64,000 bases of DNA from an uncultured Rhodospirillaceae bacterium (GTDB taxonomy: Bacteria; Pseudomonadota; Alphaproteobacteria; UBA9219): positions 54,969 to 118,968 of the forward strand of contig CAZFCA010000001.1 of the NCBI GenBank assembly GCA_964517415.1, in the 5' to 3' direction. Numbering within the stretch: the first letter of the stretch is position 1; every line of letters begins with the position of its first letter. Shown piece after piece: positions 18,975-63,815 of the stretch. A model generated the notes under the pieces. That model was given only the letters and a program-made list of their open reading frames with translations. It ran no database searches and was not told the origin of the DNA. The position numbers and the translations under genes are program-made.

Positions 18975-19200
18975 TCATCGCCATAAAAAATGTCAGCGCG
19001 GATTATTCCCGCCGCCAACGCACGCCCAAATTTTTGCCGCCATATTCTACGGAAAGTCAGCCTGGATCCCCGCCTTCGCGGGGATGACGTCGTTATTATT
19101 GAGCGGGAAGTACTCTGCCCGATGATGACGTCGGTATTATTGCAGGACAGTTCTTTGCCCGATGATGACTCTGCTATTATGGACAAAGCGGTTCTTCTAT
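18975..19200. repeat. Intergenic repeat element sharing sequence (AATGTCAGCGCGGATTATTC; REP; GTTATTATTG; TTTGCCCGATGATGA) with the 44.43-44.86 kb intergenic region
   Basis: Direct comparison of the two regions. Both lie between convergent genes. Confidence 0.55.
19056..19089. repeat. REP/MITE-like palindromic unit GTCAGCCTGGATCCCCGCCTTCGCGGGGATGACG
   Basis: Core ATCCCCGC-N6-GCGGGGAT palindrome with a CAGCCTGGA flank. Family members at 35168, 35213, 44522, 44703, 46535, 47698 and 55233. Confidence 0.7.
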
Positions 19201-46872: not shown

Positions 46873-47661
46873 TTGTCCTTCGCGCTTTCCAAAATTCTTT
46901 GGGCGGTCGTCGCGCCAGGAACGATGCTTACCCTTTTGCTGGGCGTCGGCTTGCTTTCCATGGCGTTTCGCCCGCTTGCGAAATTCGGAAAACGCCTATG
47001 CTTTTTGGTCTTCCTTTGCTTCGCTTCGATTGCGGTGTTGCCCGTGGGTAACTGGGCTTTAGCGCCGCTTGAAAATCGCTTTGCTTTCGATCCGCCCGAG
47101 CATATCGACGGCGTTATCGTCTTGGGTGGCGATGAAAGAACGGACATCACCGCCGCGCGGAGCTATCCGGTTGCGCTGGATTCCATGAGAAGGTTCGCGA
47201 CATTCGGCGATATGGCCAAGCGCTATCCCGACGCGAAGCTGGTTTATGCCGGAGGTTCAGGTCTTTTAAATCCCGACAAGACGCTGCTGGAGGCCGATGT
47301 AGCCAGCCTGATCATGGCTCAGATGGGCATTCCGGTCGAGCGGGTTATTTTTGAAAAAGAGTCCCGCAATACTTTTGAAAACGCCGTTTTCTCTGCCGCT
47401 CTCGTCAAGCCCGAAACGAACGAAAACTGGCTTCTGGTCACCAGCGCGTGGCACATGCCTCGCGCGATGGGCTGTTTCCGTCAAGCGGGCTGGAACATTT
47501 ATCCTGTTCCTACGGGTTATTTTACGACAGGAGATTACCGCTTTTCCTTTCTTTTCCGCTTTGACGAGCAAATACGCGCTTTAAGCTATGCAAAGCGTGA
47601 GTATATTGGCCTTATCGCTTACTGGCTGATGGGCAGAACAGACGCCTTGTGGCCCCAGTAA
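46873..47661 (+). CDS. YdcF/ElyC (DUF218) family membrane protein
   Basis: DGVIVLGGDE ... VTSAWHMPRA DUF218 motifs with N-terminal TM helices. Confidence 0.75.
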   Translation: MSFALSKILWAVVAPGTMLTLLLGVGLLSMAFRPLAKFGKRLCFLVFLCFASIAVLPVGNWALAPLENRFAFDPPEHIDGVIVLGGDERTDITAARSYPVALDSMRRFATFGDMAKRYPDAKLVYAGGSGLLNPDKTLLEADVASLIMAQMGIPVERVIFEKESRNTFENAVFSAALVKPETNENWLLVTSAWHMPRAMGCFRQAGWNIYPVPTGYFTTGDYRFSFLFRFDEQIRALSYAKREYIGLIAYWLMGRTDALWPQ

Positions 47662-47697
47662 GAATTCCTTTAGGTTTTCGATCTAGAACAAACGAAT

Positions 47698-47723
47698 GGG
47701 ATGCCCGCTGATCCGGGCATGAC
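47698..47723. repeat. REP variant GGATGCCCGCTGATCCGGGCATGACG
   Basis: Direct read. Overlaps the 5' end of the ORF-track extension of mltB. Confidence 0.5.
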
Positions 47724-47766
47724 GGGGGAAATCGGGATGCCCTTCATTTGGGAAAACAGAAAAACA

Positions 47767-48771
47767 ATGAGCAGACGGCAAGGCGCTTGCAAGTTAATTT
47801 CTTTGTCCGCCGCTATTATGGTTTTTGTCACTGCGTGTGCTTCGGCGACGCCTTTAAGGACGGCGCCGAATGCGTCATGGCTGCAGCAGCTTCAGCAGCA
47901 GGCGATCAGCGAGGGCGTATCGCCGGCGGTCGTTCACGAAGCGCTTGATAACTTCAGGCCTAATCCGCGCGTGATCGAGCTTGACCAAAGGCAACCGGAA
48001 AGCACCATTACTTATGACACCTACAAGCAAAGAACCGTCACAGCCAGCCGCATTCGCAAGGGCGCGGAATTGGCGCGTCTTTATGCCCTCCCTCTGGCCG
48101 AAATTGAAGCGCGCACGGGCGTGCCGCCGCAAGTCGTCGTCGCGCTGTGGGGAATCGAAAGCAGCTACGGCGAAAACCCTGGCAATTTCGAGGTCATCAA
48201 TTCGCTGGCGACGCTGGCTTATGAAGGGCGCCGGTCGTCGCTCTTCCGCAAAGAGCTGATCAATGCTTTGAAGATTCTGGAGCGCGAGAACATGACCGCC
48301 GATCAATTGCGCGGCTCGTGGGCGGGGGCGATGGGGCAATGCCAGTTCATGCCCTCGACGTATTTGAGATACGCCTACGACTCTCGGGGCGACGGCAAAA
48401 GCGACATTTGGAACGACCCGATGGATGTTCTGGGCTCTATCGCGAATTACCTCGCTGCAGAGGGGTGGAAACGCGGCCAGCCTTGGGGCTATGAAGTGAG
48501 AGGGCAGGTGCCTTTGTCAGAAGTGGGCATGGAGCAGAAACGTCCCGTTCACCAGTGGGCTTCGATGAATTTGGTTTCCAAGGTCGGCATGGCGTTGCCG
48601 CATAGCGATCATCAGGCTTCGCTTGTCCAGCCCGGCGGGCAGGAGGGCCCCAGCTTCCTTGTTTACGACAACACGCGCGCGCTGATGCGCTGGAATCGCT
48701 CCACCTATTTTGCCGTTTCCGTTGGCCTTTTGGCGGACGGCATTAAGGACGGGGCACAAATGGGGCGGTAG
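47767..48771 (+). CDS. mltB: Lytic murein transglycosylase (MltB family), probable lipoprotein
   Basis: VVVALWGIESSYGENPG and CQFMPSTY motifs. Lipobox VTAC. Confidence 0.8.
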   Translation: MSRRQGACKLISLSAAIMVFVTACASATPLRTAPNASWLQQLQQQAISEGVSPAVVHEALDNFRPNPRVIELDQRQPESTITYDTYKQRTVTASRIRKGAELARLYALPLAEIEARTGVPPQVVVALWGIESSYGENPGNFEVINSLATLAYEGRRSSLFRKELINALKILERENMTADQLRGSWAGAMGQCQFMPSTYLRYAYDSRGDGKSDIWNDPMDVLGSIANYLAAEGWKRGQPWGYEVRGQVPLSEVGMEQKRPVHQWASMNLVSKVGMALPHSDHQASLVQPGGQEGPSFLVYDNTRALMRWNRSTYFAVSVGLLADGIKDGAQMGR

Positions 48772-48899
48772 AGCGCGGATTCTATCAAATCCAGACTTAT
48801 TACGCTTTTGCTGAGTCTGCCCTAACCCCAGCCCCCAGCCCCTTAATTTTTGTTAATAAATATGGTGTAGCCTGATCGCCCATCATGGAGGCATGAGTA

Positions 48900-49553
48900 A
48901 TGTCATATCGCGCCGTTCGATCTTCTTGCCGCCGCCTTGGCTTTACGCTGGTCGAGGTCGCGATTGTGCTTGGCATCTGCGGGTTGCTTATATTCGGGGT
49001 TTATTCCGCTATGAGCTCGTCGCGCAGTTCGCACATAGCGGAGGAAGTGACAACCAATCTTGGCCAAGTCGTCGACAACGTGCGCAATTATTACGCGCGC
49101 GGCGGCTCAAGCGACAGCGTCACCGGCAGTAACTGTACCGCCGCTGGTGCGAATACCAGCTTTGAGGAGCTTAATTTTGCCACCGGAATTTTTCCTCAGC
49201 ATATGAAAAAATTGTTTGAGGATAATATAGTAGACGTCGGTGTTTGCGACCTTCCGGCCGGAACGCCGCGTGTCTTTGTGCATTATGCGCGAATTCCTTC
49301 GTACGCCTGCCATAATGTCGTTGTGGCGGCTTCTTTCGCGGGCGTGGATATGGAGCTTTCCAAGGTCGTCGTCTTCGGGGATGCGACAAGCACGTTTTTT
49401 ATCGACGAGGCGGTGGGCACATCACTTCCGGCAAATGTCGATGCGGATTCCAGGCATATCAAGATCAATTCGCCGTTGCTCTTTGAATCGTGCCCAAATG
49501 ATCCCGCGAACGCCTTTCTGACGATAGATTTCTATTACAAATTGAGGCCATGA
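48900..49553 (+). CDS. Type IV pilin-like / pseudopilin protein with prepilin N-terminal motif G|FTLVEVAIVLGI
   Basis: Class III signal: Gly-1, Glu+5 and a hydrophobic alpha1 helix. 217 aa. Confidence 0.6.
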   Translation: MSYRAVRSSCRRLGFTLVEVAIVLGICGLLIFGVYSAMSSSRSSHIAEEVTTNLGQVVDNVRNYYARGGSSDSVTGSNCTAAGANTSFEELNFATGIFPQHMKKLFEDNIVDVGVCDLPAGTPRVFVHYARIPSYACHNVVVAASFAGVDMELSKVVVFGDATSTFFIDEAVGTSLPANVDADSRHIKINSPLLFESCPNDPANAFLTIDFYYKLRP

Positions 49554-49554
49554 C

Positions 49555-50205
49555 ATGAGAGCCGAAAAATTCAAAAAAGGCTACACGCTTGCGGAAATGG
49601 CAATTGTGCTTGCCGTGGCAGGGTTTCTTACGGCGAGTATCTGGGCGGCGGCTTCGTCGGCGCGGGCAAGCAAAAGAATCGCGCAAACCTCTCAGCAGAT
49701 CATGACCGTGGTGCAGCGGACGCGGGATTATTATTTAGGAGCGCAAACAATCGAAGGGGCTGCATTTCAAGATCTCATTGTTCCCCTTTTCCAGAGAGAC
49801 GTTTTCCCTGCCGAAATGAAAGCCAGATGCGGGGGGGCTTTGTGTCTCAATTCCGCCGTTTCGGCCGATCCGACCGGCGCTTTCAGGATGAGAACGGGGC
49901 AAACAAATAGCCACTTCAGAATAATTTTGATTTCTTTGTCGCGGGAGGAGTGTGTCAATCTATTGTCTAATGCAGTGAATTTCCGCGACCAAACCCTTGG
50001 CGTCGATGGCATATGCGTCGGCACGTCCGTTAACCGTTGTATTGCTGATACAAATTTGGGCACTAATCCTTGGCGCTTGATCGACTCGACCACAACGCCC
50101 GGTGTTCGTTCCATCGCGGGCGGAGAGACGGTGATGGGCATGTGCGGCGCGCTGCCGGATAATAATTTAAATCAAGTCGGCTGGGACTTCAATTTGCGGA
50201 AATAG
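49555..50205 (+). CDS. Type IV pilin-like / pseudopilin protein with prepilin N-terminal motif G|YTLAEMAIVLAVAG
   Basis: Class III signal as above. 216 aa. Starts 2 bp after the previous pilin-like gene. Confidence 0.6.
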   Translation: MRAEKFKKGYTLAEMAIVLAVAGFLTASIWAAASSARASKRIAQTSQQIMTVVQRTRDYYLGAQTIEGAAFQDLIVPLFQRDVFPAEMKARCGGALCLNSAVSADPTGAFRMRTGQTNSHFRIILISLSREECVNLLSNAVNFRDQTLGVDGICVGTSVNRCIADTNLGTNPWRLIDSTTTPGVRSIAGGETVMGMCGALPDNNLNQVGWDFNLRK

Positions 50206-50227
50206 CGCCGCCCGCTGCGCTAAAAAT

Positions 50228-52048
50228 TCACTCCACCGTTACGCTTTTCGCCAGATTGCGCGGTTGGTCGACATCTGTTCCTTTGGCGACGGCGATATAA
50301 TAGGCGAGAAGCTGCACGGGCAGGGCATAGAGAATAGGCGCGACGGCCGAGTCGACCAAAGGCATCTCGATGCTGCGGAAAACCTTGGCGCCGACGCTTT
50401 CAATGCCCTTTTTGTCCGAGAATAATACCACTTTGCCCCCGCGTGCGGCCACTTCTTGGATATTGGAGGCGGTTTTCTCATAAAGCGCGTCGCTGGGCGC
50501 GAGGAAGACGACCGGCATGGCCTCGTCGATCAAAGCGATGGGGCCATGCTTCATTTCACCCGCCGGATAGCCTTCGGCATGGATGTACGAGATTTCCTTC
50601 AGTTTCAGCGCGCCTTCCATCGCCAGCGGATAAAGCAATCCGCGGCCGAGATAGAGAACGTCGCGCGCGTCGCTCATATTCTGCGCGAGTTCCTGAAAAC
50701 GGTTTTCGGCGCGCAGGACGAAATCGATTGCAGCAGGAAGGTCGCGCAAAGATTGCAAGATTTCAGCGATGCGCGAAGGGGGCAGGGCGCCGCGCTCTTG
50801 CGCCGCCGATAAAACAAGGCAAAGCAAGACCGCAAGCTGCGTCGTAAAGGCTTTCGTCGAGGCGACGCCTATTTCCGGACCCGCAAGCGTCGGTATCACG
50901 ACATGCGAAGCGCGGGCAATGGAGCTTTGCGGGACGTTGACGATTGATAGTATATTCTGCCCCATCGATTTCGCGTAATGCAGCGCCGCCAGCGTGTCCG
51001 CCGTCTCTCCCGATTGGGAAACGACAATCGTCAAGCCGCCATCGGGCATGGGCGCTTCGCGATAGCGGAATTCCGACGCGATATCGACTTCCACGGAAAG
51101 CCGCGCAAGCTGTTCGAACCAATACTTGGCAACAAGGCCGGTATATGAAGCCGTGCCGCACGCGATGATGGTGACGCGCGAAATTTCTTTCCATTTAAAG
51201 GGCATTTTAGGCAAATTCATCCTCCCGTCCGGCGCGACAAGAGACGCGAACGTATCGGCAATGACGGCGGGCTGCTGGAAAATCTCTTTCAGCATATAAT
51301 GGCGATAGCCGCCTTTGCCGATGGTATCGGCCGAAAGACCGGTTTGATGGATTTTGCGCTCGACGATTTTGTCCGAAGCGTCGTGAATGATAATTTTATC
51401 GGGATAGATTTCCGCCCAATCGCCTTCTTCCAAATATGCAATGCGGTTCGTCAGCGGCGCAAGCGCCATGGCATCGGATCCAAGGTACATTTCCCCTTCG
51501 CCGTATCCAAGCGCGAGCGGACTGCCGCGCCTTGCGCCGATGATCAAATCACCGTGCCCTTGAAACAAAATCCCCAAGGCGAAGGCGCCCTCAAGGCGTT
51601 TAAGAGCCTTGGCCGTCGCCTGTTGGGGCGTCAGGCCTTCGCGCAAATTGACGCTGATAAGATGAGAAATCGTTTCCGTATCGGTTTCCGAAGCGAACGC
51701 GCAGCCTCGGGCTTCAAGCTCGGCGCGAAGCTCGCGGTGATTTTCGATAATGCCGTTGTGCACGACGGCGACGCAATCCGTCGCATGCGGATGGGCGTTC
51801 GTTTCGTTAGGCTTGCCGTGCGTCGCCCAGCGGGTATGCCCGATGCCGATAGTGCCGGAAAGCGGCGTTCCGTTCAGGCGAGAAGCGAGGCGGTCCAATT
51901 TGCCCTCGGCGCGGCAAAGGCTGATGTCGCCATTCACAAGCGTCGCAATACCGGCGCTGTCGTAGCCCCTGTATTCCAGCCGCGTTAAACCGTCCAAAAG
52001 AATTGGCGCGACGGCCCGCGCCCCCACCATACCGACAATGCCACACAT
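50228..52048 (-). CDS. glmS: Glutamine--fructose-6-phosphate aminotransferase GlmS
   Basis: MCGIVG N-terminal nucleophile and two SIS domains. 606 aa. Confidence 0.95.
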   Translation of the reverse strand: MCGIVGMVGARAVAPILLDGLTRLEYRGYDSAGIATLVNGDISLCRAEGKLDRLASRLNGTPLSGTIGIGHTRWATHGKPNETNAHPHATDCVAVVHNGIIENHRELRAELEARGCAFASETDTETISHLISVNLREGLTPQQATAKALKRLEGAFALGILFQGHGDLIIGARRGSPLALGYGEGEMYLGSDAMALAPLTNRIAYLEEGDWAEIYPDKIIIHDASDKIVERKIHQTGLSADTIGKGGYRHYMLKEIFQQPAVIADTFASLVAPDGRMNLPKMPFKWKEISRVTIIACGTASYTGLVAKYWFEQLARLSVEVDIASEFRYREAPMPDGGLTIVVSQSGETADTLAALHYAKSMGQNILSIVNVPQSSIARASHVVIPTLAGPEIGVASTKAFTTQLAVLLCLVLSAAQERGALPPSRIAEILQSLRDLPAAIDFVLRAENRFQELAQNMSDARDVLYLGRGLLYPLAMEGALKLKEISYIHAEGYPAGEMKHGPIALIDEAMPVVFLAPSDALYEKTASNIQEVAARGGKVVLFSDKKGIESVGAKVFRSIEMPLVDSAVAPILYALPVQLLAYYIAVAKGTDVDQPRNLAKSVTVE

Positions 52049-52201
52049 TAGAATGCTGCTCCTTTAAGCCATGCCTTTGCCTTGGACTGTAGCGGGACTT
52101 TAGATCATGAATTTGATAATGGACAATATAGGGTTGAGGCGGCTTTGGCGAAGATTCAATTTTAGCGACTGGATGTTACCAGATCGCTACCCTCTTGAAT
52201 C

Positions 52202-52276
52202 TGGTGCCGTTGGAGGGATTTGAACCCCCGACCTTGGCTTTACGAAAGCCCTGCTCTACCTCTGAGCTACAACGGC
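52202..52276 (-). tRNA. tRNA-Thr (anticodon CGT)
   Basis: Manual fold: acceptor GCCGTTG/CAACGGC, D-arm GCTC..GAGC, anticodon loop TTCGTAA, T-arm GGGGG-TTCAAAT-CCCTC, discriminator A, encoded CCA. Confidence 0.8.
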
Positions 52277-52320
52277 GATAATACAAATCAAGCGTCGAAA
52301 CGCTCATGCATAGCAAATTA

Positions 52321-52555
52321 AGTTCAGCAAGCGACAGGCTCCTCGCAACCGCTCGTGACCCAAGGAGTCATTTCATTGGGTCGTTGGTATTATACCTAAC
52401 AACCAATGAATGTATCCACGCCGCGTGACTTCACTCCTGTCACTTGCTAAGCTGAGCCTTTGATATCCATAGCATATTCAGCTCAGCAAGTGACAGGCTC
52501 GTGACCTAAGCAGGTCATTTCATCGGCCGATTGGTATTAAAGGCTTAGGGCGTTA
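52321..52555. repeat. Two about 70-bp direct repeats (52321-52398 and 52478-52555) plus an inverted copy (52437-52462) between tRNA-Thr and the GT2 gene
   Basis: TCAGCAAG(C/T)GACAGGCTC...GTCATTTCAT(T/C)GG..GATTGGTATTA in both copies. The inverted copy is CTCCTGTCACTTGCTAAGCTGAGC. Confidence 0.6.
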
Positions 52556-52593
52556 ACGTCAACTTCATTATGGAAACAAGCGTCCAAACTTGA

Positions 52594-53556
52594 TCATTCC
52601 CCCGAATTATTAAGCGGCGCGGGAATGTTAAGATAACGCATGCGCTTCATTTCCTGCCGCCCGCGTGTAACCGTATCTAAAATCAACCCGCAGGTGAGGC
52701 ACAGAAAGGCGACGATCATGAGCCCCATCGACAAAACGGCCGTCGGCAAGCGGGGGACAAGGCCGGTATTCAGGAATTCGATAAGAATGGGGATGATCAG
52801 GACAGAGGAAAAGAAGGCGAACAAAGCGGCGCAAGCCGAAAAAAACTGCATCGGTCTTTCTTCCTTCACGAGGACGACGATAGTCCACAAAATCCTGAAG
52901 CCGTCCTTAAAAGTGTTGAGCTTGCTGATGGAGCCTTCAGGACGATCTTTGTAGGGCGTCGGGACCTCGCTGATGGGCATGCGCAGTTCAAGGGCGTGAA
53001 CCGTCAGTTCCGTTTCCGTCTCGAAACCCGCCGAAAGCGCGGGAAAACTTTTGACATAGCGGCGCGACAGAACACGATAGCCCGAAAGCATGTCGGATAG
53101 ACGGCTTCCGAAAATCCACGAAACCATGCTGGTAAGCAGCCAATTGCCGAAGCGGTGCCCCAAGCGGTAGGCTTCCTTGATGTTGGTGACGCGCGCGCCG
53201 TTCACCATATCGAGCGACTCGCGCCGCAGGAGGTTGATCATTTTCTGAGCCGAGGGCGCGTCGTAGGTCGCGTCCCCGTCTACGAGAACATAAACGTCGG
53301 CTTCGATGTCGGCGAACATGCGGCGCACGACGTTGCCTTTGCCTTGCAAAGGCTCCTGACGCACGATTGCGCCCGCTTGCCGAGCCACGGCGACAGTGCG
53401 GTCTTTGGAGTTGTTGTCGTAAACATAGATTTTCGCGCCCGGCAAAGCGGCTCGAAAATCGGCGATAACGGATGCGATGGCGGCTTCTTCGTTATAGCAG
53501 GGGATAAGAACGGCCGTTCTGGGCATGGGCTGACCTATAGCTTGGATGCTGGGCAC
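52594..53556 (-). CDS. GT2 polyprenyl-phosphate glycosyltransferase (GtrB/ArnC-like) with two C-terminal TM helices
   Basis: VLIPCYNEE, YDNNSKD and VDGDATY motifs. 320 aa with C-terminal TM pair. Confidence 0.75.
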   Translation of the reverse strand: MPSIQAIGQPMPRTAVLIPCYNEEAAIASVIADFRAALPGAKIYVYDNNSKDRTVAVARQAGAIVRQEPLQGKGNVVRRMFADIEADVYVLVDGDATYDAPSAQKMINLLRRESLDMVNGARVTNIKEAYRLGHRFGNWLLTSMVSWIFGSRLSDMLSGYRVLSRRYVKSFPALSAGFETETELTVHALELRMPISEVPTPYKDRPEGSISKLNTFKDGFRILWTIVVLVKEERPMQFFSACAALFAFFSSVLIIPILIEFLNTGLVPRLPTAVLSMGLMIVAFLCLTCGLILDTVTRGRQEMKRMRYLNIPAPLNNSGE

Positions 53557-55178
53557 AGGCTTAAGGATTTATCATCAAAAAGCCTGTCCGTCACGCTTTG
53601 GCAGCCTTTGGTGTCCAATTTAAGGCCGAAATGGGACAAAGCCTCGTCACCGACGCCCAGTTGCCACGAGGGGATAAGCATCATAAAGCGGCCTTGCGCG
53701 GCTTTTTGCGCCTCCACGCGCTCGCGCAAAAGCCTATTGATTCCCTTGTTTTGTTCAGGGCTGGAGAAGTTGCTTTGTATGCGCACAAAGCGGATTTCAG
53801 GCGGAAACAGGGGGACAAGGTGGGAATAAGGCTCGAAACCGGCCATAAGGATCATAAGATTGGATGTATCGCCCAGCGGCGGAATTTGCGCCTGCACGAA
53901 GGGCCCGTCGAGCCATGCATAGCGCCGATACCAATTGCCGGGCTTAACGGAGCCCGCGATAAGAATAAGGATGAAGCAGATGATCAGGCGGCGTTCGACA
54001 TTTTTGATGGGCGCAAGGCCAATGGCAAGGACGATGAGCAAAGGCGCGATCATTTCCAGCGTCACGGCATAGCGATAGATGGAAAACATGGCGAGCCAAA
54101 CGATATAGGCGAGCGCAAACGCAAAAAGGAGATAGCGCGCGCCGTAGGGAACCGCCAGCGCGTCTTCGGCTTTCTTATTCCGGCCATAGGCAATGCGTAA
54201 AAGGGCGCAGAGGGGAAGCAAAACGTATAGTATTGTAAGCCGCCAGTCGCGCCATTCGATCTCGCCGACGCGATAGGGGCTATCGGCGAAAAGGAAGGGC
54301 ATAAGGACATAATCGCTTAGGCTATGCGGCGCGTATTGGATGTCGCGCGCGCTAGCATGCGGCGCAAGATCGGATTTAAAGATATTATTAAAGTAGGGGA
54401 ATAGCGGGCTTCCGAAGTTGGCTTGAAGGAAAGCCGCCCAATAACCCAAGGTCGTCGCGCACCCGATAAGGACTCCAAGGCCGAAGGCGAAGCTCAGCAA
54501 AAAGCCGCGCTTCCATCCGCCGCCGCAGAAAAGCAGCGCGCCGCAAAGCCCGACGGCAAAGACAACAGCGGGAAGTTTCAGGCCGAACATGATGCCCGAA
54601 GGCAAACCGAAAAGAAGGGCGAGGATGAAAGCGGTTTTCGCTTTATCCTTTTGAAGTTTGCCAAGATACCGCACGATAAGCGCGGCGGACAAAAACGTCC
54701 CGAGGCTTGTCATATTATCCCCGAAAGTCGTGCCGATTTGCGCGATGCCGCCTCCGCCCAGCATGCCTAAAGCGGCCAAAGCGGCGCAAACAAAGACTTT
54801 CTGCCGCTTGTTCGGGATAATCAGAACGGCATGCGCAATCATGAAAAGCAGGATGAAATTGAACCCCTGAACGAAACCCAGCGCGAAGCCCGCCGCTCTT
54901 GCCGGAACATGCATCGCCAGAAGATAGAAAGGCACGTCCATCAGGGGATTGTAGAAGTATGGCGTTTGCGACGGCAAAAGGTCGATGCCGTAGCGGTTCG
55001 TCAAAAACGCATAGGCGTTATAAAAATGGTAATTGCGCAAATCCCAGTTCGCGTCCTGCCCCAGATAGAGGGCGAGCAAGCCGAAGGCCACGGGCGCGAG
55101 GCATAAAAGGGCAATCGCCAAGCCACGCGAACGGTGGTTTTTGGGGGGGAGGAAAGGCAGGGAGAGCGTGTGGTTCAT
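53535..55178 (-). CDS. Polytopic GT-C-fold membrane glycosyltransferase (ArnT/Gtr-type/DUF2029-like)
   Basis: 547 aa, at least 11 predicted TM helices, overlaps the downstream GT2 gene by 22 bp. Confidence 0.5.
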   Translation of the reverse strand: MNHTLSLPFLPPKNHRSRGLAIALLCLAPVAFGLLALYLGQDANWDLRNYHFYNAYAFLTNRYGIDLLPSQTPYFYNPLMDVPFYLLAMHVPARAAGFALGFVQGFNFILLFMIAHAVLIIPNKRQKVFVCAALAALGMLGGGGIAQIGTTFGDNMTSLGTFLSAALIVRYLGKLQKDKAKTAFILALLFGLPSGIMFGLKLPAVVFAVGLCGALLFCGGGWKRGFLLSFAFGLGVLIGCATTLGYWAAFLQANFGSPLFPYFNNIFKSDLAPHASARDIQYAPHSLSDYVLMPFLFADSPYRVGEIEWRDWRLTILYVLLPLCALLRIAYGRNKKAEDALAVPYGARYLLFAFALAYIVWLAMFSIYRYAVTLEMIAPLLIVLAIGLAPIKNVERRLIICFILILIAGSVKPGNWYRRYAWLDGPFVQAQIPPLGDTSNLMILMAGFEPYSHLVPLFPPEIRFVRIQSNFSSPEQNKGINRLLRERVEAQKAAQGRFMMLIPSWQLGVGDEALSHFGLKLDTKGCQSVTDRLFDDKSLSLCPASKL

Positions 55179-55232
55179 GGGCAGAAAGTCTTATCGCATT
55201 CAGGCGCGGGAGTCATTAATAGAAAAAAGATG

Positions 55233-55257
55233 GATCCCCGCATTCGCGGGGATGACG
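55233..55257. repeat. REP unit GGATCCCCGCATTCGCGGGGATGACG
   Basis: Direct read. Confidence 0.7.
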
Positions 55258-55309
55258 CAAATATTGTTCCTAAATCTTGAATCCAAAATCCAGAATGCCG
55301 AATCCAGCT

Positions 55310-56023
55310 TTACTTTACATTCGTGCCGGAAAGCAAAGGCGGGGCGGAAAGGGAGGAGCCTGCCCCTTGGCCGGACATTTCAATCGCCGGACTGGAAGAG
55401 GAAACGGACGGCGACACAGGCGCGACCGGCGCGGCGTTGACGGATGCGTCCACGATCATGCTGCTCATGTGCTGTTTGATGCCCGAGTCCAAATGTTCGC
55501 CCAAATCTTTCATCAGGCCGTTCAGCATCGCGTAATAGGCTTCCTGCTTTTCGAGGCTCGTGGGATTTTCGGGCAGGGTCAAGACGCGCGTCGCATCCGC
55601 GCTCGCCATGGCATAGCCTTCGCGCCCGCTGGCCTCGATAGAAACCTCGGCGTGGCCGATGTACTTCACGCCTTGATGGCGCGTCAAAAGGTCGTCAAAA
55701 AAACCGTCCTTTTTGACGGATATGGGCTGCGCGACGAGCGAAGCGTCTTTGATAAGGACAATGGCGTTGCCCGTTTGTCCGGCGGCTTGCAAGCGGTCGA
55801 CCGCCCACTGCTTGATGGCCTCGGCAATCGTCGGGCTGAAGCTGTTTGCCTTAAAGACAGAACTCGTTTGCGCGCCGCTGCGGTCGGCCAGCGAGACGGT
55901 TTTCACATCAAGCGCGATTTTCGGCAGCCTCGGCTTTTCCGTGGAGGCGATAGGGGGCGGCGCGTCGCCCGCGCAGGCAGCAAGCAAAAGCGCAAAACTA
56001 AAAGCGGCGACGGCGTTCTTAAT
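55310..56023 (-). CDS. Lipoprotein (start at MIKNAVAAFSFALLLAAC), Ser/Ala/Pro-rich C-terminus
   Basis: Lipobox LAAC. The ORF track extends to 56179, but the signal peptide starts at the internal Met. Confidence 0.45.
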   Translation of the reverse strand: MKNAVAAFSFALLLAACAGDAPPPIASTEKPRLPKIALDVKTVSLADRSGAQTSSVFKANSFSPTIAEAIKQWAVDRLQAAGQTGNAIVLIKDASLVAQPISVKKDGFFDDLLTRHQGVKYIGHAEVSIEASGREGYAMASADATRVLTLPENPTSLEKQEAYYAMLNGLMKDLGEHLDSGIKQHMSSMIVDASVNAAPVAPVSPSVSSSSPAIEMSGQGAGSSLSAPPLLSGTNVK

Positions 56024-56620
56024 CATCAAAAAGGCTCCTAAATTCATGAAAGGGGCGGCATGTGTATGGTTAATCCGGATACTAAAGGCGACTTTTGAAA
56101 AGGAAAGAAGAAATGTGCCCATAAGAATAATTTTAATCTTGTTGGTGCGAAAGGAGTGAAATATTTTGTCGGGATGCATTTATGGAGTTTTTTTATGCGA
56201 TTTTCAGACCTAAAGGATAGCGTTTCGACGCTTTCTTTATGCGCAAAGACAATGCCGGAAAAGACCTTGCTGTCAGGATTATGGGTTGCTACGGCTCTCT
56301 TTTTGGCCGGAAGGGCGGGCGTTGCCATGGCTTCTGGGGATTATGCGCCTATGGCACTTTCTCTGTTGGGGACTGTTGTTGTTGTTCCGATAGCCGAAAG
56401 GCAGATCCAGACGATCCGAAGGACGCCCCTTTATATGACTGAACCTGCCTGATACGAGGCAATCTCCCGCTAAAAAGCATTGCATTAACTATATTAGGGT
56501 GAAAAACCGTGAAAAAGCTCAGAAAAAGGGCTTTTAGCAATATTTTTTTAATTATGCAGGAACCGTTTTTTAAGGTATTTCCGTTAGATAGATTAGATTG
56601 CTTATTCATTGGTTGATGGA

Positions 56621-59149
56621 ATGTATATCGGCATTGATCTTGGCACATCGAACAGCGCGATAGCTGGCATCGTCGGCGGCAAGGCGCGTGTTTTTCACCC
56701 CGCCGAAGGCGGCGAGGTTTTGCCTTCCCTCATCTATTTCGACAAGCGGGGGCATCGCCTTTATGGGCGGCGCGCGCACGATCAAGCCCTTGTCTCGCCC
56801 GAAAACGTCGCGGCGGGATTCAAGCGATTGATGGGCACGTCGACTCCGATTGAAGTGAAAGGGGTCGAGCAAACGTTGACGCCGGAAGAATGCTCGGCGG
56901 AGATTATCCGCCAGCTTGTGGGACAGGCGACCACCGAAATAGGCGGCGAGAAGATCGAAGGCGCCGTCATCACCATTCCCGCGTCGTTCAATCAGATGCA
57001 GTCCGAGGCCACGCTGCGCGCCGCGAAACTGGCAGGGCTGGAACGCGTCGATCTTTTGCAGGAGCCCATCGCGGCCGCGTTGGCCGCTATGGAGGGATCG
57101 AAACGCTCCGGCTATTTCATCATTTACGATTTCGGCGGCGGCACGTTCGACGCGGCTATTGCTCAAGCAACGAATGGGGATGTGAAGATTATCGCGCATC
57201 AGGGCATCAATATGCTGGGCGGCCGAGATTTCGACCGCATGATCGTGAACGAGATCGTGCGCCCATGGCTGGCCGAAACTTTCGATTTGCCGGAAAATTT
57301 CCACCGCGATCCCAATTATCGCCGCTTGATACGCCTTGCGCAATTGGCGGCCGAAAAGGCCAAGATTGAATTATCCTCGAAGGAGGACGCCTCGATTTTC
57401 GCGTCCGACGAGGAACTGCGCATCGTTGACCAGAACGAGATGGAGATGTATCTGGACGTTTCTTTGACGCGCGCGCGCTTCGAGGAATTGATCCGCGACC
57501 CGATCATGCAGACGATCAGTCTTGTGCGCGATCTTTTGACGGAGAACAACATTGGCCTCGAAGAGGTAGACCGCATCGTTTTCGTCGGCGGGCCGAGCCG
57601 CACGCCATTGATCAGGCAAATGGTGTCGCAGGAACTCGGCATCGCGGCCGATATGAAAACGGATTCTTTGACCGCCGTCGCCGTCGGAGCGGCTTATTAT
57701 TGCGAAGGCCGCGAGTGGGACGGCGAAAATATCAGCAAGCCGAAGCCCAAGGAGGCCGAAGCGACAGTGCCGCAGGAGTCCCGTGTTTCCTACGCCTATA
57801 CCGCCCGCACACCCGCCGAAAAAACGGTGGTGACTTTACGTGTCGAGGGCGAAGCGCCAAAGGATCGGCATGTCAAAATTACAGGCAATAATTGGGATTC
57901 CGGCGTTTTGCCCTTAACCGACAGCCTGACGATACTCGTGCCGCTTCCCGAAGCCGGAGATCATCGTTTTGTCGCCCATGTGCTGGACGCCAAGGGGGAG
58001 GTTTTGGCCCAGCATGATCAGGCTTTGACGATCACGCGGCTTGTGGCCACGGCAGGGAGCATCCCCGCCGCTCAGACCGTCGCCGTCAAGGCTCTGGCCC
58101 ATGCCCAGGCGCAGGAAAATGTCTTAACACCGCTCGTAAAAAAAGGCGATACGCTACCCGCGAAAGGTTCTGTTAAATTCGCCAGCGCGCGCACCCTTAA
58201 GGCGGGGCAGGCCGGGCATGTGAGCTTCGAGTTGTTTCAGGTCGAATATCCGGAACGCATAGACTTGAATCTTTGCGTCGGCGTTTTCCGCGTCGGCGGC
58301 GAGGACTTGCCGGAAGAATTCGCGCTTGTTGAAGGCGCTGAGCTTGTTTTCGATTGGCAGATGAGCGACGGCGGCATTCTTCAAGCCACCGTATCAATCA
58401 GCATGGACGGCAAGACCCTTGAGCTTAAGGCGCCGCGTTTTTACGCGCCGCAAGCCGGGCAACTTTCATTCGCAGGCGAGGAGGGCGCGCAATTCGCCAC
58501 GGCGATCTTGCGGCAGGGGGACGAGGAATGGGGCGATCTGGCCGCGGCCGTCGGCCCCGATGGCGGACCCGAATTGCAACTTCTTAAGATGCGCCTTCAG
58601 GAACAAAACGAATTGATGCAGGAATCTTCGGGCGATGCGGAAGTTTTGCGCCGCGTTTCCGAGGAAGCCCGTTTCGTGCGCCAGGATATCGCGAGGCTCG
58701 GCAAAAAACATCGGGCGGCCTTGTTGCAGAGGCGACTTGGCAAAATGGCGGCCGTTTATAACCGCATCGTGCGCAAATCCGCCGGCAAAAGCGAAAACGA
58801 GCGTTTCGATAACCACGCGCGTAAAGTTCAAGAGATTATCGACGCCGGAAAGCCCGCGGCATTGGACGATGCCGATTTGCATTTATCCGAGATGCGCGAT
58901 GTTTTCTTCGCCGTGGCCTGGCGCGATCGCGATTATGTTTCGACTTGGTTCAAGCGTCTGGCGGGCGAGCCTTTCCTTTTTCCCGATCAGGACGAATTCA
59001 AGCGGATGGTGAAGGAAGGCATGGCGCTTGATCCTGCGCGCGATGCCGACGCGCTTCGCGAACTTGTTCGGCGCATGCTGTCCGCGCGCATCGCCCTAGG
59101 CGCCAGCGACACCGCCAATGAATTGGCGACCATCGTGAAGGCGAAGTAA
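56621..59149 (+). CDS. Non-canonical Hsp70-family protein (about 842 aa): actin-like NBD, about 90-aa insertion, SBD-beta-like segment, long helical C-terminus
   Basis: IGIDLGTSNSAIA, IYDFGGGTFDAAI and VGGPSRTPLIRQMV Hsp70 motifs. VFDWQMSDGGILQATVSISMDGKT resembles SBD-beta. No dnaJ or grpE nearby. Confidence 0.65.
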   Translation: MYIGIDLGTSNSAIAGIVGGKARVFHPAEGGEVLPSLIYFDKRGHRLYGRRAHDQALVSPENVAAGFKRLMGTSTPIEVKGVEQTLTPEECSAEIIRQLVGQATTEIGGEKIEGAVITIPASFNQMQSEATLRAAKLAGLERVDLLQEPIAAALAAMEGSKRSGYFIIYDFGGGTFDAAIAQATNGDVKIIAHQGINMLGGRDFDRMIVNEIVRPWLAETFDLPENFHRDPNYRRLIRLAQLAAEKAKIELSSKEDASIFASDEELRIVDQNEMEMYLDVSLTRARFEELIRDPIMQTISLVRDLLTENNIGLEEVDRIVFVGGPSRTPLIRQMVSQELGIAADMKTDSLTAVAVGAAYYCEGREWDGENISKPKPKEAEATVPQESRVSYAYTARTPAEKTVVTLRVEGEAPKDRHVKITGNNWDSGVLPLTDSLTILVPLPEAGDHRFVAHVLDAKGEVLAQHDQALTITRLVATAGSIPAAQTVAVKALAHAQAQENVLTPLVKKGDTLPAKGSVKFASARTLKAGQAGHVSFELFQVEYPERIDLNLCVGVFRVGGEDLPEEFALVEGAELVFDWQMSDGGILQATVSISMDGKTLELKAPRFYAPQAGQLSFAGEEGAQFATAILRQGDEEWGDLAAAVGPDGGPELQLLKMRLQEQNELMQESSGDAEVLRRVSEEARFVRQDIARLGKKHRAALLQRRLGKMAAVYNRIVRKSAGKSENERFDNHARKVQEIIDAGKPAALDDADLHLSEMRDVFFAVAWRDRDYVSTWFKRLAGEPFLFPDQDEFKRMVKEGMALDPARDADALRELVRRMLSARIALGASDTANELATIVKAK

Positions 59150-60769: not shown

Positions 60770-61141
60770 TGTCCTTATGGGTCAGAGGGCGCGCCGAAAC
60801 GATAGTCGCCTGTCGCAAAAAAAACGATAAGAATCAGCGCACAAATTTTCAGTACGCTACGGCGCGGCGCGGGAGACGTTGAATCAAGAATTGTGACAGT
60901 TATGCTTTTGCGCGTTAGGGATGGGCGGGGGCACTTCGCCGCGCGGCGAGCGCGAAAGATCATATGTTAATGAAACAAAAAGGCGTAACTGCTTGACAAA
61001 CTTGCTCTCTTTAGGTTATCGGTTTTGCTATGGCGATCTGATTGCAAACCGCACGCTCGTGTTTAATTCCTATCGCAAATCATAAGTTGGGGTGATAAAG
61101 AATTGCCCTCTCCCGCAAGAGGAGAGGTAAGTGACTTTTAT

Positions 61142-61218
61142 GGCGGTTGTAGCTCAGTTGGTAGAGCCCTCGGTTGTGGTCCGAGTGGTCGCGGGTTCGA
61201 GTCCCGTCAACCGCCCCA
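61142..61218 (+). tRNA. tRNA-His (anticodon GTG) with encoded G-1 and CCA
   Basis: Manual fold: G-1 + GGCGGTT/AACCGCC acceptor, anticodon stem CTCGG/CCGAG with loop TTGTGGT, discriminator C, CCA. Confidence 0.8.
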
Positions 61219-61295
61219 GTTTTTCTACACATTTTTTAAGTGACTTGCTCCGCGTGAATTTCATATTATTTTTGAGAATTATTTCGGGAGGATTT

Positions 61296-61760
61296 ATGCA
61301 AATTTTCGACAAAGCTAATAATTATGGAATAGAGCCGAATACGCCTGCTTATTCTCTTTGGACAAGCAACGGCTCGGCAAAAATTTTGTGCGGCTTTGTT
61401 TTTACGCATTTTCCAGGATTTGCCAACCTCTGCGCGCCGTCTCTTTTTAAACTTCCACCGGATGCCCGCGTTGCGAATTCGGATAGGATTTATCGAGTGG
61501 AGAAATATGAACCCGGCGCTCATTCTTTGACGCTGAAGTCCGGCATCAACACGGCTATTGTGCTTCCTTATCGTTCTGATGCCGTCAAGCGTCCCTATCA
61601 TGAGCAAGCCGATGTGTCGCAAAGACAGAACAGTTACGTTTACGTTCTTAAAGGAGGCTTGACGCCGGAACTGGCCATTCACATAACCAGTCCTGTTCGT
61701 TCAGACGAGCCGTTTCTGACGCAAAAGCAGTTGAAGGATCTTGTGAAGCTAAGATTTTAA
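61296..61760 (+). CDS. Hypothetical protein downstream of tRNA-His (lower GC)
   Basis: 154 aa from Met MQIFDK. The ORF-track extension over the tRNA is spurious. No homolog recognised. Confidence 0.35.
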   Translation: MQIFDKANNYGIEPNTPAYSLWTSNGSAKILCGFVFTHFPGFANLCAPSLFKLPPDARVANSDRIYRVEKYEPGAHSLTLKSGINTAIVLPYRSDAVKRPYHEQADVSQRQNSYVYVLKGGLTPELAIHITSPVRSDEPFLTQKQLKDLVKLRF

Positions 61761-61773
61761 TAGAGAGAGACTA

Positions 61774-62214
61774 TCAGGCGCTTTTGGGGGCCTGCGCAGG
61801 GGACTGCTTGGCGACAGTGGCGGCGATCATTTTCTTCACCTGATCGACCGTGAGCGGCGCTTCCATCGGGCCGAGGTCGTGATCCATATCCAGATCAATC
61901 GTGATCATTGCCTTGTTGTCCACTACAGTAAACGCTTTCTTTCCGTCACGCGGCAAAACGATGTTGTTTTCGATAAGGAACAAAATGAGCGGCTGCAAAA
62001 CATCGCCGCCTTTGAACGACAGCTCGATATTGTTGACCGAATCCCCGTAAGTCGCTTCCACTTTGACCTTAATCTTGCTTTCGTCGCCCGCTATCGGCGT
62101 GCAGGAAACCAATTTGCCCGAAGGCAGAAACTGAGGCGTTTTGCGCGCGAAAGACTGAAAGGCCGTTATAAGCTCTTCGGTCGTAAAAATAATTTGGCGG
62201 ATTTCATAAACCAT
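61774..62214 (-). CDS. Hypothetical protein
   Basis: 146 aa, no recognisable domain. Confidence 0.35.
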   Translation of the reverse strand: MVYEIRQIIFTTEELITAFQSFARKTPQFLPSGKLVSCTPIAGDESKIKVKVEATYGDSVNNIELSFKGGDVLQPLILFLIENNIVLPRDGKKAFTVVDNKAMITIDLDMDHDLGPMEAPLTVDQVKKMIAATVAKQSPAQAPKSA

Positions 62215-62426
62215 ATGAGACTCTCCGACTTAACCAAAAGCCTGCATGGACTTTGACGGCTAAAACATACGTATAGAGTATATAGGCAAAACGATAACTT
62301 TTGATTAAATCCCATAGTTTCTAAGGGGTTAATATTTGGCTTTATTTAACAAGTTAAAGAGAGTTTTGTCGTTTTTTCTGCTATTCTCATTAATTATGAA
62401 CAACATCTTAATTCGGGATTTGAAAC

Positions 62427-63815
62427 ATGGCCGAGCGTTCTGTTCGCACTGAAAAGGACAGCATAGGTTCTATCGAAGTGCCCTATAGCCGCTATTGGGG
62501 AGCTCAAACTCAACGCAGTCTGCAAAACTTCCGCATCGGCACGGAAAAAATGCCTTTGCCGCTCATGCATGCTCTAGGGGTTGTGAAAATGGCGGCCGCT
62601 ATGGCGAATGTGCAGCTTGGCCTTTTAGATGAACAGGTGGGCAAAGCCATCGCCGAAGCCGCGAAAGAAGTCGCCATGGGGCGGCGCGACGATGAATTTC
62701 CGCTTTCCGTTTGGCAAACTGGCTCGGGCACACAAACGAACATGAACGTGAACGAGGTTGTCGCCAACCGCGCCATCGAACTTATGGGCGGCATTATGGG
62801 AAGCAAAATTCCCGCACATCCCAACGATCATGTGAACAAGGGGCAAAGCTCGAACGATTGCTTTCCGACAGCTATGCACATCGCGACAGTGATGGAGATC
62901 GAAAATTTCCTTATCCCCGCTTTGGAGCATTTGCATGAGACGCTGCGCGTGAAGAAAGAGGAATTTCGCGAGATCGTCAAAATCGGCCGCACCCATCTGC
63001 AAGACGCCGTGCCCATGACTTTAGGGCAGGAGTTTTCCGGCTATGCCGCGCAAGCGCGTCTGGGGATCGAGCGGGCGCGTCATGTTTTGCCGCATTTGTA
63101 TCCTTTGGCGCAAGGCGGAACGGCCGTGGGAACGGGGTTGAACGCCGATCCACGTTTCGACGATGCTTTTATCGCCCACGTTATCGATATCACGAAAAAG
63201 CCTTTCGTTATCGCCGAAAACAAATTCGAGGCCTTGGCAAGCAACGACGCGATGGTCGAAGTTTCGGGAATGCTCAATACGCTGGCCGCTAGCTTCATGA
63301 AAATCGCGAACGACATGCGGCTTCTGGCTTCGGGGCCGCGCTGCGGTATCGGCGAAATCACGCTGCCTGCGAATGAGCCTGGATCGTCGATCATGCCAGG
63401 GAAGGTTAATCCGACGCAGGCCGAAGCCATGACGATGGTCGCGGCGCAGGTCATGGGCAACCATGTGGCCGTAACGATAGGCGGCGCAGGCGGGCAATTG
63501 GAACTGAACGTTTTCAAACCGATGATTATCCATAACGTTTTGCAGTCTATTCGTTTGCTTGGCGATGCGGCGCGCAGCTTTGCGGATAAATGCGTGCGCG
63601 ACATCATGCCGAACAGAGAGCGCATTCAGGAACTGGTGGAAAAGTCTTTGATGCTTGTAACCGCATTGACGCCCATTATCGGCTATGACAAAGCGGCGAT
63701 GGTCGCCAAAAAGGCTTTTGACGAAAACAAGACGCTTAAAGAAGCCGTTTTGGACATGGGGCTGATGTCGGCCGAGGAATTCACGAATCTTGTAAGGCCG
63801 GAGAGTATGGTGTGA
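62427..63815 (+). CDS. fumC: Fumarate hydratase class II
   Basis: [13 protein letters not shown] and [13 protein letters not shown] signature motifs. 462 aa. Confidence 0.95.

Follow-up and report, generated by a model that had tools for sequence, protein, structure and literature searches.

The locus described here lies in a 64-kb stretch of DNA (64,000 nucleotides; hereafter the window) from an uncultured Rhodospirillaceae bacterium, and comprises minus-strand genes for a lipoprotein, a polytopic membrane protein of 547 amino acids (aa) and a family 2 glycosyltransferase (GT2). We conclude, with a probability of roughly 0.75, that these genes make up the core of a three-component system for periplasmic glycosylation, which is chromosomal and vertically conserved, and in which the 547-aa protein would be a glycosyltransferase of the C-type fold (GT-C), with the GtrA-like flippase encoded after GT2 in relatives. 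Its products very likely charge a lipid carrier with a sugar, which is then attached to a molecule of the envelope on the non-cytoplasmic side. Along the minus strand, the order is lipoprotein gene, a 131-nt gap, GT-C gene, an 8-nt gap, GT2 gene, a 317-nt intergenic region, tRNA-Thr and glmS (Table 1). A preliminary description of this DNA had listed a tRNA-Thr(CGT) gene, a GT2 gene, a co-oriented polytopic membrane protein, a lipoprotein gene and a repetitive extragenic palindromic (REP) element, all of which were recovered. The same description had the GT2 and GT-C genes co-oriented and overlapping. Their orientation holds; the overlap arises only when GTG 53556 is taken as the GT2 start, and the ATG at 53526, which is the start in an independent gene call (310 aa) and gives the arrangement found in L001, the locus of the closest relative, leaves the 8-nt gap.

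The GT-C membrane protein and its partners

The 547-aa protein gave no Pfam match even at E values up to 10 and no NCBIfam match, and no PDB sequence was found with it by phmmer or by two profile searches. It reaches the gathering threshold of none of the curated GT-C families (PMT_2/ArnT, GT87, YfhO, PMT, STT3 and TMEM260-like). An AlphaFold2 model built from a 40-sequence alignment was confident (predicted local distance difference test, pLDDT, 85.5; predicted template modelling score, pTM, 0.88), and Foldseek returned GT-C-fold matches to it at a probability of 1.0. In the model the protein has what defines a GT-C enzyme at the level of the fold, a polytopic membrane domain with the GT-C fold. 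Identity to ArnT and to the PimE/GT87, ALG9/GT22, ALG3/GT58 and PMT/GT39 enzymes was 8-12%.

Eleven transmembrane helices (TM1 being residues 16-39) are predicted, with the N-terminus in and the C-terminus out, and with this topology all predicted cytoplasmic loops are Lys/Arg-rich. The motif GQDANWDLRNYH stands directly after TM1, in the predicted first periplasmic loop, where D46 is invariant and D42 at least 90% conserved. Among family members that are 27-49% identical, D46, H51, P78, K201, W247, P258, W361, R369 and Y370 are invariant, and D42, D66, N77, D154, E375, C526 and C542 are at least 90% conserved. Cys526 and Cys542 form a conserved pair in a C-terminal predicted periplasmic alpha/beta domain. 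Judged by the model helices, the sequence and the positive-inside rule, the conserved residues would be periplasmic, as would the C-terminal domain that carries the Cys pair, and the acidic residues of the first external loop would fit the GT-C signature, in which the catalytic acid is located there.

The family is large. When 1.84 billion representatives (clusters at 50% identity) were searched with a profile, 3,940 clusters matched with E values of 1e-3 or lower, and 1,935 with 1e-30 or lower. Among 84 divergent members, weak Pfam matches to GT87 were seen in five (best E 6e-6) and to PMT_2 in five, next to matches to TMEM260-like and YfhO, and the recurring ones all belong to the GT-C clan. 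Domain fusions were found in the members P0191, P0288, P0255 and P0304, two of them N-terminal GtrA-GT-C fusions and two with a C-terminal DUF4214. The sub-threshold GT87 matches, together with a GT2 partner that is nearest to a dolichyl-phosphate mannose (Dol-P-Man) synthase, are points of likeness to the PimE/GT87, ALG9/GT22, ALG3/GT58 and PMT/GT39 enzymes; unlike these, the window protein itself has no GT87 match, and it carries a different C-terminal periplasmic domain with its conserved Cys pair.

Predicted fold, the conserved periplasmic Asp, and conserved linkage and fusion to GtrA support the membership of the 547-aa protein in the GT-C superfamily. The GT-C call of the preliminary description is borne out on these grounds, with no sequence support from databases. 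The lack of any sequence family match would also suit a transporter, or a membrane protein that has a GT-C-like fold but no catalytic role, whose adjacency to GT2 is incidental. We regard this as very improbable, given that Asp, His, Lys and Arg residues in the predicted periplasmic loops are invariant across ~3,900 clusters, that different phyla share the gene order with GT2 and GtrA, that GtrA fusions exist, and that transporters were matched by Foldseek only at probabilities of 0.03-0.13. Indirectly, the conserved adjacency to a GT2 enzyme resembling AglJ and Dol-P-Man synthase (DPMS) and to GtrA, and the GtrA fusions, point to a polyprenyl-phosphate-linked sugar as the putative type of donor.

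The GT2 protein matches PF00535 (E 1e-14) and aligns over its full length to the NCBIfam AglJ model (TIGR04182) with 205 bits, under the equivalog cut-off of 325; the NCBIfam scan listed no equivalog match to ArnC, GtrB, RgtE or LgmA. The nearest solved structure is the Dol-P-Man synthase of Pyrococcus furiosus (5mlz, E 9e-7). Its translation contains a VDGD motif of the DXD type and a hairpin of two C-terminal hydrophobic, transmembrane helices (residues ~236-300 of the open reading frame, ORF). Because of these features, the protein is assigned as a putative polyprenyl-phosphate hexosyltransferase of the AglJ/DPMS type, which has a GtrB-like architecture and is not an equivalog of ArnC, GtrB or AglJ. 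For comparison with relatives one genome per species was scanned, which gave 565 species with a relative of the GT-C protein, and 80 loci were retrieved. Across these loci GT2 identity was 60-90%, with a median of 75% versus 46% for GT-C.

The lipoprotein has a signal peptide, MIKNAVAAFSFALLLAAC, that ends in a LAAC lipobox, and its Cys18 is invariant in 33 homologues. A GGAG ribosome-binding site is located 8 nt upstream of its ATG at 56026. The protein gave no family match. Its core (residues 35-190) is predicted to adopt an LptE/PqiC-like fold, and its tail (residues 191-238) is Pro/Ala/Ser-rich and predicted to be disordered. In the homologues the tails are 14-208 aa long and Pro/Ala/Ser/Thr-rich, and many end in (V/I)(I/P)L(S/T)G; in tail versus core, Ser/Thr make up 19% versus 14% and Pro 16% versus 6%. 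The lipoprotein gene precedes the GT-C gene, in the same orientation, in 33 of 72 loci, each of which belongs to the closer clade. Its product, from a gene taken to be co-transcribed with the cassette, is the leading candidate in this clade for a partner of the enzymes or for the substrate itself.

Table 1. Features of the locus and of its tRNA-side and Hsp70-side boundaries (positions in the window)
Feature	Position	Strand	Evidence or remark
tRNA-Thr(CGT)	52202-52276	minus	ARAGORN; Rfam tRNA, 68.7 bits; neighbour, outside the cassette
Hairpin AGCGTTTCGACGCT with A/T-rich tail	52289-52306	minus	terminator-like; just upstream of the tRNA gene
Repeat copy A, full form with the 13-nt segment CTCCTCGCAACCG	52306-52392		repeat search and alignments
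Segment homologous to DNA just upstream of the L001 Hsp70-like gene	52382-52436		
Inverted partial copy of the repeat core	52436-52455		20 nt, 95% complementary to 52478-52497
Repeat copy B, without the 13-nt segment	52465-52539		nhmmer, E 1.4e-15
GT2, putative polyprenyl-phosphate hexosyltransferase of AglJ/DPMS type	52594-53526	minus	PF00535, AglJ model, 5mlz
Membrane protein with predicted GT-C fold, 547 aa	53535-55178	minus	unannotated family
REP-like palindrome CCCCGCATTCGCGGGGATGAC	55236-55256		six copies in the window versus 0.01 expected
Lipoprotein, 238 aa	55310-56026	minus	LAAC lipobox; GGAG ribosome-binding site
Inverted twin of the hairpin at 52291-52304	56219-56232	plus	intergenic region between lipoprotein and Hsp70-like genes

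Gene order in relatives and the missing flippase gene

GT-C is followed by GT2 on the same strand in 64 of the 72 loci that had room for both (63 identified by script, plus L010, in which the genes overlap), and a GtrA-like gene (PF04138) comes after GT2 in 51 of 62. These loci span uncultured alphaproteobacteria, Azospirillum, Skermanella, Nitrospirillum, Telmatospirillum, Desulfobulbales and Marinimicrobia. Plasmid matches were only two, in Polaromonas and Bartonella, and both show the same order of hypothetical protein, GT2 and GtrA (GtrA family protein in RefSeq). The genes outside the cassette in relatives are unrelated housekeeping genes (holB, tmk, dacC, clpB, cysK, ftsY, miaB), and in none of the loci examined was the cassette adjoined by genes for lipopolysaccharide (LPS), lipid A or sugar-nucleotide modification.

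In the closest relatives the order Hsp70-like gene, lipoprotein, GT-C and GT2 is kept. Conservation of the locus in relatives is what the preliminary description had itself named as refuting its reading; it is seen for this side, and only the junction on the tRNA side differs. The Hsp70-like gene is the divergent neighbour of the lipoprotein gene in only ~9 relatives, eight of them among the closest. In the window it (56609-59149, plus strand) codes for an 846-aa protein. Residues 7-365 form its N-terminal, Hsp70/actin-like ATPase domain (PF00012, E 1e-69), and the C-terminal ~480 aa gave no family match.

The tRNA side departs from the order of the relatives within a synteny break (window positions 46873-52593) that was found by comparison with L001, L004, L006 and L085. 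In L001, L004 and L006, GT2 is followed by GtrA, holB, tmk, dacC and rlpA, and in L004 and L006 then by mltB and a DUF218 gene. In this genome the repeats, tRNA-Thr, glmS and two pilin-like genes come after GT2 and separate it from mltB and the DUF218 gene; its rlpA, dacC, tmk and holB lie past the window end, after fumC and glk. The neighbour on the holB side is a pilus-assembly operon (T2SS-E and T2SS-F genes) and not GtrA. A 133-aa ORF after holB, which occupies the position of GtrA in L001, is not GtrA-like, and no GtrA-like sequence or remnant was found in the 64 kb, repeat region included (best tblastn E 0.5). Since the GT2-GtrA-holB order of the relatives is replaced here by repeats, tRNA-Thr and glmS, the synteny breakpoint coincides with the repeat cluster, and the flippase gene has been detached or removed. 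A rearrangement would have cut the cassette right after GT2 and put the repeats, tRNA-Thr, glmS and the two pilin-like genes in the place of GtrA.

A 1.2-kb contig (L218; JGI contig Ga0247854_1137182) carries at 675-1097 a GtrA gene with 81% identity to the one in L001, without an adjacent GT2 and between REP-like elements. It is not assignable to this organism; its position shows that linkage of GtrA to the cassette can be lost in this lineage.

Two observations relate to type IV pili. In plasmid 2 of Polaromonas sp. JS666 (L096, 1-4522) the GT-C, GT2 and GtrA trio comes directly after a type IV pilus/PilV shufflon cluster, and the two adjacent pilin-like genes near the cassette in the window (48900-50205, plus strand) code for type IV pilin-like proteins with N-terminal methylation motifs. 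Glycosylation of pilin by GT-C enzymes is known (TfpW). The pilin genes do not lie beside the module in L001, L004 or L006, and a link between cassette and pilus was judged to be probably coincidental.

Intergenic repeats and the tRNA neighbour

Direct repeats of ~70 bp had been described as bounding the module, with an inverted copy beside them. The repeats are real (copies A and B and a 20-nt inverted core; Table 1), but they all lie at one end of it and do not bound it. Copies A and B align in three colinear blocks of 81-88% identity that are interrupted by the 13-nt indel. The RNA of the 317-nt intergenic region folds more stably than its shuffled versions (z = -4.95), and the segments 52436-52455 and 52478-52497 form a 20-bp stem. 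The segment shared with L001 (43 of 54 positions identical, 80%) is well above shuffled controls (z = 16; nhmmer E 2e-5). With a profile of the repeat, two further copies of the element were found in L029, both intergenic (nhmmer E 6e-22 and 2e-20). The GT-C protein of this relative has only 57% identity to the window protein, and weak inverted partners lie beside the two copies. In the 64-kb window there are no other copies of the ~80-nt repeat. The 17-nt repeat core gave at least 120 matches metagenome-wide, none of which extended beyond ~30 nt on the 317-nt alignment, so these were attributed to chance. Among Rfam models run on 51.9-56.8 kb only the tRNA was above threshold; matches resembling mir-24 and mir-214 merely reflect the hairpin at 52436-52499.

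Because of their position at one end, their palindromic fold, their recurrence in L029 and the homology upstream of the L001 Hsp70-like gene, we read the repeats as palindromic intergenic repeat elements that belong to a small family, and not as attachment (att) sites. They share with REP elements, RIME and miniature inverted-repeat transposable elements (MITE) that they (52306-52539) are intergenic, partly palindromic and strongly structured, that they occur in direct and inverted copies, and that they recur in intergenic DNA of another genome. They differ in their very low number of copies, with two and a half seen in the window and two to four in L029. We know of no link of the ~80-nt repeat to a transposase.

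Short-read contigs from Logan, from at least six samples, end at the repeats, at 52341 in the case of three contigs that come from the glycosyltransferase side and at 52359 in the case of five that come from the side of glmS. These ends coincide with the 13-nt indel that separates copies A and B, which suggests either heterogeneity in the population or graph branching induced by the repeats.

Two further palindromic motifs are present. The REP-like palindrome of the gap between the lipoprotein and GT-C genes belongs to a set with copies at 19068, 35179, 35227, 44532, 46539 and 55236 of the window (consensus CCCCGC(N4)GCGGGGATGAC), and sequences resembling it were also found in L001 and in contig L218. 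A 20-nt inverted pair (52285-52304 and 56219-56238; 90% identity), whose core is the 14-mer of the hairpins in Table 1, exactly flanks the repeats, GT2, GT-C and the lipoprotein gene. The 14-mer has only two sites in 64 kb versus 0.03 expected. Readings of the pair as terminal inverted repeats or as the site of an inversion were rejected: the orientation of the module relative to the Hsp70-like gene is the same as in relatives, in which the motif is absent. Both hairpin copies look like small terminator-type hairpins.

The preliminary description had also placed the module downstream of the tRNA gene, and stated that such glycosyltransferase pairs are often carried on tRNA-integrated islets. 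The first statement is true only in plus-strand coordinates; the tRNA gene is on the minus strand, and module and repeats are on its 5' side. A tRNA-Thr-integrated islet with a Gtr-like serotype-converting or otherwise surface-modifying module, delimited by att-like repeats, would agree with the adjacency of the tRNA gene and the real repeats in between, with the non-conserved tRNA-side junction, and with the breaks of independent assemblies at the repeats. It would also agree with the fact that classical gtr clusters are prophage-borne. The other evidence makes it highly improbable. In addition to the 5'-side position of the module and the location of both repeat copies at one of its ends, a 25-nt probe of the tRNA-Thr 3' end (up to 3 mismatches) found no second copy in the window, only the tRNA gene itself; a 20-nt match of 80% inside the GT-C ORF, considered as an att duplicate, is at chance level. 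The GC content of the module (0.55-0.58) is like that of its flanks, no integrase was found among the neighbouring genes scanned or with a Pfam match (~42.6-64 kb), and 50,697 phage records contained no homologue. The same repeat occurs in unrelated intergenic regions of L029. The order Hsp70-like gene, lipoprotein, GT-C and GT2 is kept in the closest relatives and the order GT-C, GT2 and GtrA across phyla with no tRNA nearby, and no tRNA gene flanked the module in the 21 relatives scanned. The islet reading is largely refuted, and a tRNA neighbour with local repeats is insufficient for calling an island. The second half of the earlier claim, a GT2 and GT-C pair acting on a lipid-linked sugar, is supported by fold, residues and linkage.

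Elsewhere in the window, tRNA-His(GTG) (61143-61218, plus strand) has right at its 3' side the start of a low-GC stretch (61000-62750; 0.43-0.46 versus ~0.55 elsewhere). This stretch contains two small ORFs of 154 and 146 aa without Pfam match, before fumC, and would qualify better than the present module as an insertion linked to a tRNA gene.

Proposed system and its acceptor

Three-component periplasmic glycosylation systems are a described class (PMC11127046), and the following route is proposed for the cassette. GT2, anchored by its C-terminal hairpin, would take a hexose from a nucleotide sugar and load it onto undecaprenyl phosphate at the cytoplasmic face. The lipid-linked sugar would then flip to the periplasmic face, in relatives via the GtrA-like protein encoded right after GT2. 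Finally, the 547-aa GT-C protein would move the sugar to a periplasmic acceptor, using D42 and D46 together with K201, R369 and Y370. The analysis shows the gene content, the (predicted) fold, the conserved residues, the kept gene order, the fusions and the lack of island features; from these we infer the donor sugar, the topology, the flipping and the acceptor, as well as any working of the system without a linked GtrA.

Several points weigh against the proposal. No GT-C family is matched by the 547-aa protein at the sequence level, and its superfamily assignment rests on the predicted structure. Every family member encountered is annotated as 'hypothetical protein', and the glycosyltransferase activity is a predicted one. 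With no flippase gene at the locus, this organism may have an impaired system. Lastly, the identity of the sugar donor cannot be read from the sequence, and hexose is a putative assignment.

The arrangement resembles the Gtr system for O-antigen glucosylation (GtrA flippase, GtrB GT2 and type-specific GtrC) of Shigella and Salmonella phages in having a membrane-anchored GT2, a polytopic GT-C protein and, in relatives, a GtrA with four transmembrane helices, encoded by co-oriented, tightly packed genes. It differs from Gtr in its gene order (GT-C, GT2, GtrA versus GtrA, GtrB, GtrC) and in its chromosomal housekeeping context without phage homologues, whereas Gtr is prophage- or island-borne. 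Moreover, the GT-C protein is highly conserved and not serotype-specific, GT2 is closer by sequence to AglJ/DPMS than to the solved GtrB, and the window lacks a GtrA gene and has an additional lipoprotein gene. The high conservation of both enzymes and the housekeeping genes around the cassette make it probable that the acceptor is a component of the envelope that is itself conserved, and not an O antigen that varies between strains.

Two sub-hypotheses of the glycosylation system each specify an acceptor. In the first, which we hold to be possible though it falls well short of an even chance, the cassette modifies LPS or lipid A in the manner of ArnC/ArnT, RgtE/RgtD or LgmA/LgmB: GT-C would add the sugar to lipid A or the inner core at the periplasmic face, and the lipoprotein with its LptE-like fold would bind or present LPS. 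Most Gram-negative GT2 and GT-C pairs act on LPS (established knowledge; for O antigens, PMC11127046), and the high conservation of both enzymes suggests a conserved acceptor. With ArnC/ArnT, which transfers 4-amino-4-deoxy-L-arabinose (L-Ara4N) from undecaprenyl phosphate to lipid A, and with RgtE/RgtA-D and LgmA/LgmB, the cassette shares the pairing of a GT2 with a GT-C protein at the periplasmic face, and its acceptor may likewise be a conserved one. Nevertheless, the GT-C protein does not belong by sequence to the ArnT/PMT_2 family and has no such Pfam match, GT2 is no equivalog match for ArnC, RgtE or LgmA, genes of the ArnA, ArnB, ArnD, ArnE or ArnF type are absent nearby, and the flippase of the relatives is of the GtrA and not the ArnE/F type. 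The examined loci also lack neighbouring genes for LPS, lipid A or sugar-nucleotide modification, and the LptE-like fold is common to PqiC, PelC and further lipoproteins that have no link to LPS.

The second sub-hypothesis is protein O-glycosylation, in which GT-C would modify Ser/Thr residues in the disordered tail of the lipoprotein and perhaps other envelope proteins. Actinobacterial Ppm1/Pmt is a GT2/GT-C precedent for O-glycosylation of proteins. In streptococci, GtrB and the GT-C enzyme PgtC2 glucosylate Ser/Thr-rich disordered regions, including the C-terminal one of the membrane-associated chaperone PrsA (PMC12041528). The window shares with GtrB/PgtC2 and Pgf (PMC12041528) the GT2 and GT-C pair and, opposite the disordered-tail target PrsA, an adjacent lipoprotein with a disordered tail; the likeness is at the level of architecture, the streptococcal system is Gram-positive, and glycosylation of the window lipoprotein is purely hypothetical. 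The lipoprotein gene directly upstream of GT-C and co-oriented with it in 33 of 72 loci, and the predicted disordered, Pro/Ala/Ser/Thr-rich tail with its recurrent end, favour this acceptor. On the other hand, the more distant half of the family lacks the lipoprotein at the locus, although the periplasmic domain of GT-C is conserved there. The tail is only modestly enriched in Ser/Thr, the protein is structurally no closer to PMT than to ALG9 or ArnT, and disordered Pro/Ala-rich tails are also common as plain linkers. We consider this acceptor unlikely, and somewhat less probable than LPS or lipid A. A similarly low expectation attaches to the broader idea that the 547-aa protein founds a new GT-C family and is a Gram-negative protein O-glycosyltransferase that uses an undecaprenyl-phosphate hexose on the lipoprotein tail and possibly on further envelope proteins. 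If true, it would be the proteobacterial counterpart of actinobacterial Pmt and streptococcal PgtC2.

Three-component periplasmic glycosylation is well known, so the class of mechanism is not new. What is new here is a large GT-C family (~3,900 clusters, 565 species-level genomes) without a representative in Pfam, in NCBIfam or among solved structures. Its carriers include cultivable Azospirillum, Skermanella, Nitrospirillum and Telmatospirillum, and the strict linkage to GT2 and GtrA provides a functional hypothesis and a genetic handle in cultured bacteria. The acceptor, be it lipid A/core, the lipoprotein tail or another envelope polymer, would, once found, add a conserved modification of the bacterial envelope and probably also a new GT-C family in CAZy.

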